This document shows, piece after piece, positions 3,667 to 46,823 of a stretch of 64,000 bases of DNA (position 1 is the first letter of the stretch; each line of letters opens with the position of its first letter). The translations under genes and the position numbers were made by a program. The notes below the pieces were generated by a model, which saw nothing but the letters and a program-made list of their open reading frames with translations, ran no database searches and was not told the origin of the DNA. The stretch covers positions 1 to 64,000 of the IMG/VR virus record IMGVR_UViG_3300047284_000516. One strand, written 5' to 3'. Origin of the DNA: a virus.

Positions 3667-5287
3667 TAAAGAATATTATCTTGGCAATGCAAACCTAAAG
3701 AAAACAAGAGTTCGGATTGAATATACTCCCGAACAAATTTTGGAATTTCAAAGGTGTGCTGAAGATCCAATCTATTTTATTAAAAAATATGTCAAGATTG
3801 TTAACGTAGATCTTGGTGTAATTAATTTTGATCTCTGGGCATTCCAAGAGCAGCTAGTTAAAAAAGCCATTCAAGAGAGATTCGTAATATGTAAGATGCC
3901 TCGACAGGTTGGTAAAACTACCACTGTTGCGGCACTTATACTACACAACGTCTTATTTGCAGAGAACTTCTCTGTAGCTATTCTAGCCAATAAAGAAAAG
4001 CAAGCAAGAGAAATCCTTTCCAGAATTCAAATGGCATATGAAAACTTGCCAAAATGGTTACAGCAAGGAATTGTGGAATGGAATAAAGGGAATATAGAAC
4101 TAGAAAATGGATCTAAAATTCTAGCTTCAGCAACATCCGCAAGTGCTATTCGAGGTACGTCTCAAAATTTAATCTACTTGGATGAGTTTGCATTTGTTCC
4201 ATCAAACATGCAAGAGGAATTCTTTGCATCCGTTTACCCCACCATATCTTCTGGTAAAACAACAAAAGTTCTAATTACATCCACACCCAATGGCTTAAAT
4301 ATGTTTTATAAGCTATGGGTAGATAGTGAGCAAGGGAACAATAGCTATACAAGAGTGGATGTGCATTGGAGTGATGTTCCGGGTAGAGATGAGGAATGGA
4401 AGAAGGAAACTATCCGAAATACCTCTGAAGAACAATTCAGACAAGAGTATGAATGTGAGTTCTTAGGATCATCCAACACTTTACTATCACCTAGTACTTT
4501 GAAGAGACTAGTGTTTAGACACCCCGTCAAGATGTCTCCTGAAGGATTAAAGGTGTATTATGAACCTCTACAGGAGGGACTATACTGCATAGTAGTGGAC
4601 ACGTCAAGAGGTAAGGGTCTCGATTATTCTGCTTTTGTGGTATTTGATTGTACAGAGTTTCCCTATAAGGCAGTGGCAACATTTAAGAACAATGAAATAT
4701 CACCTCTAATATACCCAACCATTATTGAGCAAACAGGTAGATATTATAACAATGCGTTCATTCTAATCGAAACAAATGATATAGGCCAACAAGTAGCAGA
4801 TATAGTATATCAAGATTTGGAATATGAAAATGTTGTTTTCTGCGAAACAATTGGTAAAGGTGGTCAAGTTGTATCTAGCGGCTTCTCAAATTCTAAATAT
4901 GTGGGTGTTCGAACAACTAAACAAGTAAAGCGTATTGGTTGTGGAAATATCAAGTCCTTAATTGAGGAGGACAAACTAATTATTTGTGATTATGATACTA
5001 TTCAAGAATTTTCTAGGTTTAGTCTCAAGAGAACAAGTTATGAGGCAGAAGAGGGGAACGATGATCTGGTTATGTGTCACGTGTTGTTTGGGTGGCTTTC
5101 ATCCCAACCCTTTTTTAAAGAATTAACAAATAACGACATAAGAAAAAAGTTGTTTTTTGAGAAACAAAAAATGATTGAGGAGCAAATGCTTCCATTTCCA
5201 ATAGTAGAAGATGGTCATCAAGATCAGAGCGAGTTTGAGATTGTAGATTTAGAAAATCAAAGCTTCGATCAGTGGATGAGGAACTAA
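3653..5287 (+). CDS. gp17: Terminase large subunit gp17
   Basis: PRQVGKTT Walker A, IYLDEFAFV Walker B, ITSTPNG, DDLVM nuclease motif. Confidence 0.97.
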   Translation: MASNNKEYYLGNANLKKTRVRIEYTPEQILEFQRCAEDPIYFIKKYVKIVNVDLGVINFDLWAFQEQLVKKAIQERFVICKMPRQVGKTTTVAALILHNVLFAENFSVAILANKEKQAREILSRIQMAYENLPKWLQQGIVEWNKGNIELENGSKILASATSASAIRGTSQNLIYLDEFAFVPSNMQEEFFASVYPTISSGKTTKVLITSTPNGLNMFYKLWVDSEQGNNSYTRVDVHWSDVPGRDEEWKKETIRNTSEEQFRQEYECEFLGSSNTLLSPSTLKRLVFRHPVKMSPEGLKVYYEPLQEGLYCIVVDTSRGKGLDYSAFVVFDCTEFPYKAVATFKNNEISPLIYPTIIEQTGRYYNNAFILIETNDIGQQVADIVYQDLEYENVVFCETIGKGGQVVSSGFSNSKYVGVRTTKQVKRIGCGNIKSLIEEDKLIICDYDTIQEFSRFSLKRTSYEAEEGNDDLVMCHVLFGWLSSQPFFKELTNNDIRKKLFFEKQKMIEEQMLPFPIVEDGHQDQSEFEIVDLENQSFDQWMRN

Positions 5288-42756: not shown

Positions 42757-42762
42757 GTGGAT

Positions 42763-43065
42763 ATGAAAAAAATACTTTTTAGTCTCTTGTTCGTCTCTCT
42801 ACCAGTATTTGCTGCTCCTTTTGATGTTACCCTAAGGCATCCATGTGACACAACACAGATAGTTGCAGACTCTTTACTCAATAAGCACAATGAGTTGCCT
42901 ATTGTATATTCGGAGATAATGGGGGACAATCAGCAACTAATTCAAATTACAGTTTGGTATAACAAAGATAAACGAACAGTTTCAGTGGTTCAGACATCCA
43001 AAACAGCAAAGGTGAGCTGTATCATTGCTGTGGGTGAGCAAGCAGAAGTAGTAAGTATTAAATAA
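42763..43065 (+). CDS. Small exported protein
   Basis: Signal peptide MKKILFSLLFVSLPVFA; two Cys. Confidence 0.6.
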   Translation: MKKILFSLLFVSLPVFAAPFDVTLRHPCDTTQIVADSLLNKHNELPIVYSEIMGDNQQLIQITVWYNKDKRTVSVVQTSKTAKVSCIIAVGEQAEVVSIK

Positions 43066-43241
43066 CTCGGTGTCGCCTAGCCTGGTAGCGCATCTGAGTA
43101 TAATAAAGGAAATTCTCTCTGTGGCGTAACCTGGCAGCGTACTACGTTTGGGGCGTAGTGGTTCTGGTTCAAATCCAGACAGGGAGACCAATATGTAATG
43201 GTAGCAGAGGGTCCAAGGTTCAAATCCTACCATCGAGACCA
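43066..43241 (+). pseudogene. Split, degenerate tRNA (Pro-like) interrupted in the anticodon arm by an insert carrying tRNA-Pro
   Basis: 5' half CTCGGTG...AGCCTGGTAGCGCATCTG (43066-43096) and 3' half CAGAGGGTC...GGTTCAAATCC...CATCGAG-A-CCA (43205-43241) form a 7-bp acceptor stem. Confidence 0.7.
43115..43190 (+). tRNA. tRNA-Pro(UGG)
   Basis: CTCTCTG/CAGGGAG acceptor, CTACG-TTTGGGG-CGTAG anticodon arm, TCTGG-TTCAAAT-CCAGA T-arm, encoded CCA. Confidence 0.9.
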
Positions 43242-43248
43242 CTTTGAA

Positions 43249-43322
43249 GCCCCTATAGTTAAATGGTATAACATCGGTTTTGTAATCCGAGGTTCGCAGT
43301 TCGATTCTGTGTAGGGGCACCA
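43249..43322 (+). tRNA. tRNA-Thr(UGU)
   Basis: GCCCCTA/TAGGGGC acceptor, loop TTTGTAA, GTTCGATT T-loop, CCA. Confidence 0.9.
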
Positions 43323-43323
43323 T

Positions 43324-43446
43324 ATAAAACTCTTTGTAGTAGCTACAGCGGAACAACTGAAATGCTTGCCATTTCCGGAAAAAGCAAGTACCAGCCGTGA
43401 AGAGTAGGGCTACCATGGATTCAAGCGCCGTACAGAGAGCTTTTAT
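43324..43446 (+). ncRNA. Unassigned structured RNA directly after tRNA-Thr
   Basis: Closing stem ATAAAA-CTCTTTGTA / TACAGAGAG-c-TTTTAT plus nested helices; no + strand ORF in the track. Confidence 0.55.
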
Positions 43447-43475: not shown

Positions 43476-44078
43476 ATGGAATATATCTCCGATGTCGATG
43501 TTTATCATAATATCGACCTAAACCATCTGTGGATCTATGATAAACTGATCCTCTCTAAGAAGTTGGGCTACCTCTGCGGTCCTTCTGGTATACCTGTGCC
43601 TACAGATGCTTGGTATATTGTGAGACCAATAACAAATATTCATATGATGGGAAAGGGTGCATACCGAGCGTTTTTGACTCCCACATCTTGTAATATTCCA
43701 GATGGATATTTTTGGTGTGAGATGTTTGAGGGTAGACATTTTTCAATTGATTATTTTTGGGGTGTACAGCATCTAACGGTAGAGGGAATAAAGCGTACTG
43801 ATAGATTAGACAGATTTTATAAATGGACGAAGATAGATTTCAATTTCACTCTACCAGACTGTTTAAAAGAGGTGGCTGTTGTCAACAAGTGGTTGAATAT
43901 AGAAATGATTGATGGTAATATTATTGAAGCTCATATGAGATTTAATGATGATTTTCGAAATCACAATGGAAGTGAAATCTTTCCAGTGTGGAAAGATGAT
44001 CCCAGCTTTGTTGTTCCAGGAGCGGAATGGTATGAAAGCAAAGCTGCTGATCGATTGGGCTTCTGGGTAATGTCATAG
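43476..44078 (+). CDS. Putative ATP-grasp-like protein
   Basis: IYDKLILSKKLG, YIVRPITN-x4-GKGA, WCEMFEGRHFSID, NIEMIDGNIIEAHMR resemble ATP-grasp elements. Confidence 0.5.
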   Translation: MEYISDVDVYHNIDLNHLWIYDKLILSKKLGYLCGPSGIPVPTDAWYIVRPITNIHMMGKGAYRAFLTPTSCNIPDGYFWCEMFEGRHFSIDYFWGVQHLTVEGIKRTDRLDRFYKWTKIDFNFTLPDCLKEVAVVNKWLNIEMIDGNIIEAHMRFNDDFRNHNGSEIFPVWKDDPSFVVPGAEWYESKAADRLGFWVMS

Positions 44079-44518: not shown

Positions 44519-44535
44519 ATAATAAAGGATAACAA

Positions 44536-45015
44536 ATGTTTAAACTAGATTTAGATGAAGTCAAAGAGTTCATTCAAAATACCTCCCCTTCCTCTAAAAT
44601 CTATTTGGGATGCGATTCAGAAAGAATCCTCCATAAGAACATTTGGTACGCTGACTACACTGTAGCAGTAGTAATCCACAAAGATGGTAAACATGGCTGC
44701 AAACTATTTGGTGAAGTAATCAGAGAAAAAGACTTTGACCAAAAGGAAAATAAACCAAGATTTAGACTTATGAATGAAGTGTATAAAGTATCGGAACTAT
44801 ACCTAAACTTAGCAGAATGCTTTGGCAATAGGCATGTAGAAGTTCACCTTGACATTAACCCAAATGAGATGTATGGTTCTAGTTGTGTAATCAATGAGGC
44901 AATTGGATATATTAGAGGCACTTGTAATGTAATTCCAATGGTAAAGCCAAAAGCATTTGCTGCTACTTGTGCTGCCGATCGCTACAAGGAAGTTAGAAAT
45001 ATCCGATCGGTGTGA
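44536..45015 (+). CDS. RNase H-like YkuK-family protein
   Basis: IYLGCDS, RLMNEV, EVHLDIN, AATCAADR. Confidence 0.8.
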   Translation: MFKLDLDEVKEFIQNTSPSSKIYLGCDSERILHKNIWYADYTVAVVIHKDGKHGCKLFGEVIREKDFDQKENKPRFRLMNEVYKVSELYLNLAECFGNRHVEVHLDINPNEMYGSSCVINEAIGYIRGTCNVIPMVKPKAFAATCAADRYKEVRNIRSV

Positions 45016-45110: not shown

Positions 45111-45659
45111 ATGAAAACAGTAGGTGATAAGATTAGTGAATTTGTAGTAACTGGTGTCAATCCTGGTAGCGACCAATTCTTTGACATCACAGAAAAGTCT
45201 TTTGAAGGTAAATGGAAAGTTATTGTATTCTATCCAAAAGATTTCACATTTGTATGCCCAACTGAGATCGTTGCATATGATAAGTTGTTCCAAGACTTTG
45301 CAGATCGCGATGCCGTCCTTCTGACAGGTTCTACAGATAACGAATTCTGTAAACTTGCTTGGCAGCGTCATCATGAGGATCTCTCCAAGATCAAACATAT
45401 TCAGTTTGCTGACACTCAGCGTCGTAATGCAGATTACGATACTCTGAGTCTTGCTGATCAACTTGGTGTATTCTTTGCACCTGCAGGCGCAGCACTTCGC
45501 GCAACATTTATTGTTGATCCTGATAATGTGATTCAGCACGTAACAGTTAATAACCTCAACGTTGGTCGCAGTCCAGATGAAACATTGCGTATTCTCGACG
45601 CACTTCAGACTGGCGAACTCTGCGCATGTAACCGTGCTGTGGGTGGAGAGACCCTATAA
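45111..45659 (+). CDS. ahpC: Peroxiredoxin AhpC
   Basis: FYPKDFTFVCPTEI, RATFIVDP, GELCAC. Confidence 0.95.
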   Translation: MKTVGDKISEFVVTGVNPGSDQFFDITEKSFEGKWKVIVFYPKDFTFVCPTEIVAYDKLFQDFADRDAVLLTGSTDNEFCKLAWQRHHEDLSKIKHIQFADTQRRNADYDTLSLADQLGVFFAPAGAALRATFIVDPDNVIQHVTVNNLNVGRSPDETLRILDALQTGELCACNRAVGGETL

Positions 45660-45661
45660 TC

Positions 45662-46327
45662 ATGTTAGAGACCATCTGTGATACAATGGTCGAAGCTTAC
45701 CGTCGCAATTGGATTACTAGTCGCGACGGTAACGTAAGCATTCGGCATCATGATAGAGACCATTTTTACATCACTCCATCTGGTGTGCGGAAACAGACTT
45801 TGCAACCGGATCAGTTCAAGAAGATCGGCATTGTAGAAGGATTTTATGGTCAACCTCCTCGTTTAGAGCATAATTATGAAGTACGTGATTACACAGACAT
45901 TAGTAAAAATCTGAAACCTAGTGGTGAGATTCCATTGCATTTTGGATTGCAAAAAGAGTTGGGGCAGCACTCTAGTGATGTGAGGGTTGTAATGCATTTT
46001 CATCCAACTTACTGTGTAGCTGCGATGCATGCTGGGATTGAGCTTGCAGACCTAACAAAAGATTTCCCCGAGCTATCGCGGTATACGAAGGTTGCTTCAA
46101 ATGTAGGAGATGTTCCTCCAATCAGTCAAGAACTTGCCGATCGCTGTTTTGAAAATCTTAAATTGGATAAAAATGGCTTCGTAAAATATGATATTGTTGG
46201 AATCAAAGGTCACGGTGTAGTGAGTATCGATACTTCACCGTGGAGGGCTTTTGAACACATTGAACGGCTTGAGCATATTTGTCAAATAGTACTAGTTTCG
46301 AAAGGATACACAAATGCAGTGGGTTGA
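45662..46327 (+). CDS. Class II aldolase/adducin-family metalloenzyme
   Basis: DGNVSIR, ITPSG, KPSGEIPLH, VMHFHP, KGHGVV. Confidence 0.85.
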   Translation: MLETICDTMVEAYRRNWITSRDGNVSIRHHDRDHFYITPSGVRKQTLQPDQFKKIGIVEGFYGQPPRLEHNYEVRDYTDISKNLKPSGEIPLHFGLQKELGQHSSDVRVVMHFHPTYCVAAMHAGIELADLTKDFPELSRYTKVASNVGDVPPISQELADRCFENLKLDKNGFVKYDIVGIKGHGVVSIDTSPWRAFEHIERLEHICQIVLVSKGYTNAVG

Positions 46328-46823
46328 TACACTTAAAGAAGGGTTACCAGATTATGCAAAGGACACCCGCCTTAATATCGATGCAGTAATTAAACGTAGT
46401 GCGCTTGATCCAGAGATGGTTGAGTATGTGGCACTAGCTGCAACATTTGCTACTGGTAATACAAAGCTCTGGACATGGATTGCTAGTCAACTTACCAACG
46501 AGACCGAAAAGAATGCCGCACTCACAGCAGCTTCTTTAATGGGTATGAATAATGTGTGGTATCCGTATGTCGAGATGGCAGAAGATGAGCAATTAACAGG
46601 TCTACCTGCTCAGCTTCGTATGAATGCTATTGCTACGCATGGCGGTACAACAAAGGCTAGATTCGAAGCTTACAGTCTAGCTGCATCAATTGTTGGTAAA
46701 TGTCACTTCTGTGTCAAAGCTCACTACAATACTTTGAAAAAAGAAGGGTACACTGTTGAACAATTGAGAGATTTAGGTAGAATATCATCAGTGATTGCAG
46801 CAGTATCTAAGATCATGGTTTAA
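46314..46823 (+). CDS. ahpD: Alkyl hydroperoxide reductase AhpD
   Basis: LPDYAKDTRLN, MNNVWY, SIVGKCHFCVKAH (CxxC plus His). Confidence 0.92.
   Translation: MQWVDTLKEGLPDYAKDTRLNIDAVIKRSALDPEMVEYVALAATFATGNTKLWTWIASQLTNETEKNAALTAASLMGMNNVWYPYVEMAEDEQLTGLPAQLRMNAIATHGGTTKARFEAYSLAASIVGKCHFCVKAHYNTLKKEGYTVEQLRDLGRISSVIAAVSKIMV

Follow-up and report, generated by a model that had tools for sequence, protein, structure and literature searches.

An intact tRNA-Pro(UGG) gene nested in the anticodon arm of a second viral tRNA-Pro gene: a probable scar of tRNA gene replacement

Integrative elements such as phages and islands use the anticodon loop or the T-loop of tRNA genes as insertion sites and bring a substitute for the 3' part. 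These elements are kilobases long, encode an integrase, leave direct repeats and duplicate the 3' part of the same gene. Genes which are interrupted in the anticodon-loop region are represented by the archaeal BHB introns, the split tRNAs and the bacterial group I introns. Changes in the tRNA sets of phages are commonly attributed to whole genes being gained or lost and to conversion that is driven by homing nucleases. The homing nuclease SegB of phage T4, a GIY-YIG enzyme, recognises a motif in the T-arm and is encoded by a gene within the tRNA cluster (PMC2330249). In a search of the full-text literature no paper was found on a tRNA gene nested in a tRNA gene, neither for bacteria nor for phages.

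The stretch analysed here (in the following the window) comprises 64,000 nucleotides, which are positions 1 to 64,000 of the IMG/VR record IMGVR_UViG_3300047284_000516. The record is a viral contig of 79,894 bp with a CheckV completeness of 45%; all of its genes are located on the plus strand, to which the window coordinates below refer, and its GC content is about 39%. The gp41-type helicase is about 60% identical to its counterparts in Synechococcus myophages and in Melnitz and Mosig, two phages of the Kyanoviridae, and this similarity assigns the source virus to the marine T4-like phages.

The nest spans exactly positions 43066-43241 and consists of an intact tRNA-Pro(UGG) gene which lies between the two halves of a second tRNA-Pro gene. 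It resembles the integrative elements in the point of insertion, the anticodon region, and in that the incoming DNA restores the lost function. In contrast to them, the insert is a segment of about 100 nt with a complete tRNA gene of different sequence, without repeats and without a neighbouring integrase. The interruption in the anticodon-loop region is shared with the archaeal BHB introns, the split tRNAs and the bacterial group I introns; however, the break is located 5' of the anticodon and not at 37/38, and the outer gene is damaged elsewhere too. By inspection and folding no BHB could be drawn at the junctions, between which only weak A-U pairing is possible, and a permissive Rfam scan of 43066-43241 matched only tRNA and no group I or other intron RNA. 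The similarity to the turnover by SegB consists in the T4-like tRNA cluster, in incoming genes that displace the resident one and in a region that is mosaic between relatives. Unlike in that system, it is the anticodon arm that is broken, a nearby nuclease gene is lacking, and the nest is not a clean conversion.

The 5' part of the outer gene (43066-43096) covers the tRNA positions 1-30, i.e. the 5' strand of the acceptor stem, the D-arm and the 5' strand of the anticodon stem, and reads CTCGGTG TC GCCT..GCGC A TCTG. The 3' part (43199-43241) reads TGG TA GCAGA GGGTC ..CATCGAG A CCA, so that the anticodon TGG, the second strand of the anticodon stem (GCAGA) and the variable loop GGGTC are followed by the T-arm, the 3' strand of the acceptor stem, A73 and CCA. 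An earlier note, made from the sequence alone, had proposed that these two halves form a 7-bp acceptor stem and a TCTG/CAGA anticodon stem, and both stems are indeed found: CTCGGTG/CATCGAG is paired at 7/7 positions, one of them as G-U, and TCTG pairs with CAGA. In place, the outer halves are called by neither ARAGORN nor Rfam.

In the insert of about 102 nt, the 76-nt tRNA is preceded by an 18-nt leader and followed by a trailer of about 8 nt. The leader or left flank (43097-43114) contains TATAAT, which gave no call as a sigma-70-like promoter, and the 11-mer ATAATAAAGGA. The inner tRNA-Pro(UGG) gene (43115-43190) was identified by ARAGORN, by Rfam and by a Pro covariance model. The right flank (43191-43198) reads ATATGTAA and its boundary is given within a few bases; due to a TG microhomology the boundaries of the insert are uncertain by 2-3 nt. 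Apart from this 2-nt microhomology no direct or inverted repeats bound the insert, nor does any repeat family extend across its junctions. The break lies 5' of the anticodon, between positions 30 and 34, and positions 31-33 are lost or overwritten. It is not a clean break, as three nucleotides of the loop are missing or changed and a target-site duplication is absent.

The origin of the outer gene could be followed by blastn of its halves. The 5' half (34 nt) matched 27 records of cultured phages, and nearly all annotated matches are tRNA-Pro genes; the 3' half (43 nt) matched annotated phage tRNA-Pro genes from end to end (E 4e-4). After splicing in silico the outer gene is 75-79% identical to the tRNA-Pro genes of the phages PG7, Mosig and ST4 and of the viral contig L153, and only 48/76 positions are identical to the inner gene. 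These comparisons show that the two genes have separate ancestries; the outer one represents the common tRNA-Pro type of these phages. An intact tRNA-Pro gene, that of the viral contig L161, has the identical acceptor pair CTCGGTG/CATCGAG. In the closest intact gene, that of L153, the anticodon arm reads TCTGC-TTTGGGA-GCAGA and is followed by GGGTC; the outer 5' part agrees with it through G30 and the outer 3' part from T34 on, with position 37 as the only difference. The hallmarks of tRNA-Pro which had been pointed out before are all present, namely C1-G72, A73 and the anticodon UGG, and both halves are homologous to annotated phage tRNA-Pro genes. The earlier note had further described a gene broken at its anticodon arm with a divergent isoacceptor of the same anticodon in the gap, which agrees with the identity of 48/76 and with the inner gene being the sole intact tRNA-Pro gene in the 79.9-kb record.

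In comparison to its closest intact relatives the outer gene shows several lesions. The mismatches that had been suspected in the D- and T-stems are C12xC23 in the former and C49xC65 and A50xA64 in the latter, and in addition G37 is changed to T. Three of four pairs are left in the D-stem and three of five in the T-stem (CAAGG/CCTAC). Excision of 99 nt in silico results in a 77-nt tRNA-Pro(tgg) which ARAGORN calls at a threshold of 90% and not at its default setting. The anticodon loop of the spliced gene is non-canonical, with either A33 or a mispaired 31-39, plus T37. With the Pro covariance model the outer 3' half reached 8.9 bits and the D-arm 4.2 bits, and the 100-nt insert was not bridged. 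Since only three T-stem pairs remain, it is very unlikely that the spliced outer gene folds as a tRNA. The break between 30 and 34 together with the D-stem mismatch, the two T-stem mismatches and the change of G37 to T characterizes the outer gene, by its sequence, as a pseudogene. All of the mismatched strands match natural alleles found elsewhere (GCCT in L159, CAAGG in L154 and L229, CCTAC in Mosig), and therefore recombination between alleles, and not point mutation, may have shaped the D- and T-stems.

The inner gene is in a different state. It scores 51.7 bits with Rfam RF00005 (threshold 29), is called by ARAGORN at default, and reaches with 73.8 bits the top score among the tRNAs of the record in the Pro-specific covariance model, for which 33 tRNA-Pro genes of phages were used. 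The inner gene is presumably the working one. It is identical at 71/76 positions to a tRNA-Pro gene of the viral contig L009, which is part of a Pro-Ala-Thr array and has no outer halves. Protein searches revealed nothing shared between the 14.7-kb stretch of L009 and the window; another stretch of the same contig (L223) encodes a 67% homologue of the RNaseH-like ORF of the window. No match to the inner gene was obtained among cultured phages at E 0.01, and a 35-nt pattern derived from it had no match in the GTDB genomes. By these searches the gene belongs to a rare lineage.

A relaxed excision test on 892 distinct phage tRNA genes from 80 related clusters served as a control for chance. Junction-spanning calls of 72-79 nt were obtained for nine of the 892 genes, and only for the gene of the window did the outer tRNA have the same isotype and the same anticodon as the inner one. 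As the sole such case among 892 genes, the nest is not due to chance, and no other nested gene was detected among them. The proposal of an intact tRNA-Pro(UGG) nested in a second tRNA at 43066-43241 is thereby confirmed.

The search for relatives of the nest was less successful. Megablast of the region against cultured phages returned nothing, as did exact-pattern scans of IMG/VR with the outer 5' half and with the outer 3' end. With a gapped pattern, an insert of 90-120 nt in the outer tRNA-Pro type was found nowhere in IMG/VR; in GTDB the corresponding pattern retrieved only tandem Pro pairs and complete Pro genes with att-like 3' copies. Nor did the cassette and its flanks turn up at another place. 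The relatives with an uninterrupted outer gene or with the same nesting, for which the earlier note had suggested to look, were thus searched for, and none was found. Comparison therefore gives neither a direction nor an age for the event, a point against the reading as a replacement scar.

Bacterial loci with an incomplete second tRNA-Pro were observed in Vibrio, Salinivibrio and Photobacterium (L238, L240, L256, L259, L271, L283, L293, L296 and others). In these genomes a complete tRNA-Pro(UGG) gene and a terminator are followed by a partial 3' copy, which starts at the anticodon loop and carries a GC-rich insert of about 20-40 nt in the T-loop. These partial copies look like att scars of integrative elements.

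The record encodes exactly five tRNAs, Pro(UGG), Thr(UGU), Arg(UCU), Leu(UAA) and Met(CAU), and small ORFs are interspersed between them. The tRNA-Thr(UGU) gene (43249-43322; ARAGORN and Rfam) begins 7 nt 3' of the outer tRNA-Pro gene. In the window as well as in the phages Sugarland and ST4, tRNA-Pro precedes tRNA-Thr and a few bases separate them, and in phage Mosig the gene order is Pro..Arg(UCU)-Leu(UAA). The ORFs near the nest encode two DUF6734 proteins, an orphan, phrog_3577, an RNaseH-like protein (PF04308), AhpC, an aldolase and CMD. The ORF directly upstream of the nest (42757-43065), whose stop codon abuts the start of the outer tRNA-Pro gene, is an orphan. A 200-aa ORF between tRNA-Thr and tRNA-Arg belongs to a family restricted to viruses and gives no nuclease signal. 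For the ORF downstream of the nest (43476-44078) the best relative shows 72% amino-acid identity, and no tRNAs were present beside its examined relatives (at most 51% identity). In the GC-richer stretch after tRNA-Thr (43324-43446) a permissive Rfam scan detected no family.

Between the tRNA genes, at 45111-46823, genes for an AhpC/TSA peroxiredoxin, a class II aldolase and a CMD-family protein are located. The AhpC and CMD proteins have relatives of 74-86% in the viral tRNA clusters L207, L209, L179, L220 and L160. Because these relatives sit in other viral tRNA clusters, the region around the nest is visibly mosaic; the closest relatives of the ORFs of the cluster are scattered over different contigs. 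A search of IMG/VR gave 305 relatives for the RNaseH-like (PF04308) ORF at 44536-45015. Large tRNA clusters surround the ORF in 78 of the 80 loci examined (L153-L232), and its start is usually found about 17-25 nt past the CCA of a tRNA. By this distribution the PF04308 RNaseH-like protein, which is so far uncharacterised, is conserved and linked to the tRNA clusters of phages.

The most probable explanation, to which we assign a probability of roughly two thirds, is that the nest represents a replacement scar: a piece of about 100 nt with a foreign tRNA-Pro(UGG) gene broke the resident gene, which is now a pseudogene. A resident tRNA-Pro(UGG) gene of the type common in T4-like phages and their relatives would have been located directly upstream of tRNA-Thr. 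The incoming DNA would have broken it in the 5' side of the anticodon loop (30-34) and would have brought along a complete foreign tRNA-Pro(UGG) with its 18-nt leader and its trailer of about 8 nt. The inner gene would then have taken over the supply of tRNA-Pro. The stem-breaking changes of the outer gene may have been acquired afterwards, or this gene may already have been damaged at the time of the break. We infer a single insertion as the origin of the nest, through illegitimate or break-repair recombination at the DNA level in a mosaic tRNA region. The best reading of the locus is accordingly that of a rare, one-off scar of tRNA gene replacement and not of a new kind of split tRNA.

The leader of the insert fits less well to this picture. 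The 79.9-kb record contains only two copies of ATAATAAAGGA, one at the left end of the insert (43100-43110) and the other at 44519-44529. The second copy directly follows the CCA of tRNA-Leu(UAA) on its 3' side and forms the ribosome-binding region of the ORF 44536-45015. In relatives a similar AT-rich spacer with a Shine-Dalgarno site is found after a tRNA and before the RNaseH-like ORF, and at the nest no ORF follows the Shine-Dalgarno-like site of the left flank. By its composition, AT-rich with a Shine-Dalgarno-like site, the leader looks like an orphaned after-tRNA spacer. The 11-nt identity to the trailer of tRNA-Leu begins exactly where a tRNA would end. The match may show only that the cassette originated in a similar tRNA cluster. 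However, a random DNA break does not explain a leader that starts at the trailer point, and this counts against the reading as a replacement scar, as do the unclean break in the loop and the missing target-site duplication.

Among the alternatives, a dedicated selfish process survives best, although we regard it as unlikely. The insert would then be a mobile 'replacement tRNA' cassette, or the result of gene conversion by a homing nuclease, which cleaves the resident gene at its anticodon region and brings its own resistant copy. That the inner and the outer gene share their anticodon speaks for this possibility, as the insert compensates the damage which it caused. A precedent is given by the homing nuclease SegB of T4, which turns over T4-like tRNA clusters, but its target is the T-loop and not the anticodon loop (PMC2330249). 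Pfam and PHROGs scans of the larger neighbouring ORFs revealed no nuclease, integrase or transposase. The only GIY-YIG signal, in a 157-aa frame at 72351-72608 of the record, is below the cut-off with 15.5 bits, and the tRNA cluster is about 29 kb upstream of it. The ends of the insert bear neither inverted nor direct repeats. A mobile cassette is further disfavoured by the lack of a second copy, by the absence of 90-120-nt inserts in this tRNA-Pro type from IMG/VR and GTDB, and by the 892 tRNA genes of related clusters, which contain no further nest. The idea put forward at the outset, that pressure by an anticodon nuclease or an endonuclease had caused the replacement, likewise found no evidence: no nuclease gene is adjacent, and the weak GIY-YIG frame lies about 29 kb away.

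Two further phage nests, which speak for a selfish process as well, were detected when IMG/VR was scanned for two T-loops 28-55 nt apart; both pass ARAGORN at default after excision. In L106 (IMGVR_UViG_3300018430_000106, 4972-5124) a tRNA-Phe(GAA) gene is located inside a tRNA-Arg(UCU) gene. The insert is a 76-nt tRNA-Phe unit which has no flanks, ends with CCC and is placed between U34 and C35 (loop CUU|CUAA). The outer tRNA-Arg(UCU) is otherwise intact, being called by ARAGORN at default after excision, and the 13.3-kb stretch of L106 contains no second Arg(UCU) gene. In L058 (IMGVR_UViG_3300007177_000055, 4995-5146) a tRNA-Ile(GAU) gene interrupts the anticodon loop of a tRNA(CAU), as ARAGORN reads it after excision, for which no CCA is encoded. 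RtcB was found in neither of these two records. Other loci that ARAGORN called at 90%, for example L054 and L101, were rejected due to their poor folds.

Each of the two nests pairs different tRNAs, and both look recent. They raise the chance of a general phenomenon and leave the reading of the window unchanged. The broader proposal, that nesting of tRNAs in anticodon loops is a recurrent and so far undescribed form of tRNA gene turnover which also occurs in phages, is tentative at present and rather improbable. If it were true, the nest of the window would be an old and decayed example, with L106 and L058 as fresh ones. The insert of L106 is exactly tRNA-sized and the left flank in the window starts at the point where a trailer would begin, which hints at a transfer that recognises processing boundaries, possibly via an RNA intermediate.

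It is far less probable that the nest has a function at the RNA level. According to that explanation RNase P and 3' processing would free the inner tRNA, and the outer halves would serve as a ligated nicked tRNA or as a decoy for an anticodon nuclease. The outer gene has kept some of what such a role needs, i.e. the 7/7 acceptor stem, A73, CCA and the TGG anticodon, and the pairing of its acceptor is present in the minimum-energy fold. Host anticodon nucleases are known to shape the tRNAs of phages (PMC10264068). Against this stand the two T-stem mismatches, the D-stem mismatch and T37, and the loop after excision would be non-canonical (A33 or a mispaired 31-39). Rnl1 or Rnl2 was not found in the record, which is 45% complete, and the 176-nt RNA folds no better than its shuffles (z -0.81). 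For the same reasons, the lesions, the ligases and the fold, the analysis gives no support to the earlier note's suggestion of a nicked decoy or a substrate for ligation formed by the outer halves.

An assembly chimera of two strain variants with different tRNA-Pro genes at the locus is equally hard to believe. In its favour, the record was assembled from a metagenome, and the junctions find no confirmation in another contig. However, both junctions lie outside the stretches that the two genes have in common (at most 12 nt and 11 nt). Because the junctions avoid this common sequence, a k-mer misassembly is unlikely; an error in a graph of shared k-mers would lead to hybrid tRNAs and not to a complete gene framed by matching halves. 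Hardly credible is finally an array of the order outer-Pro/inner-Pro/outer-Pro in which the first gene lost its 3' half and the third gene its 5' half, as it needs three genes and two deletions which both end in the anticodon loop, and as tandem Pro genes, common as they are in bacteria (55/81 of the GTDB pattern matches), occur in 0/50 tRNA-Pro loci of the related clusters.

Read as a replacement scar, the locus would be a snapshot of a replacement, with the old gene still visible together with its successor, which is located in the anticodon arm of the old gene. Taken alone, the nest has the value of a curiosity and is most probably a dead relic. ARAGORN and Rfam do not see the outer halves, so that annotation misses such relics. 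Together with L106 and L058, the nest suggests that the anticodon loop of tRNA genes may be a recurrent landing site for other tRNA genes.
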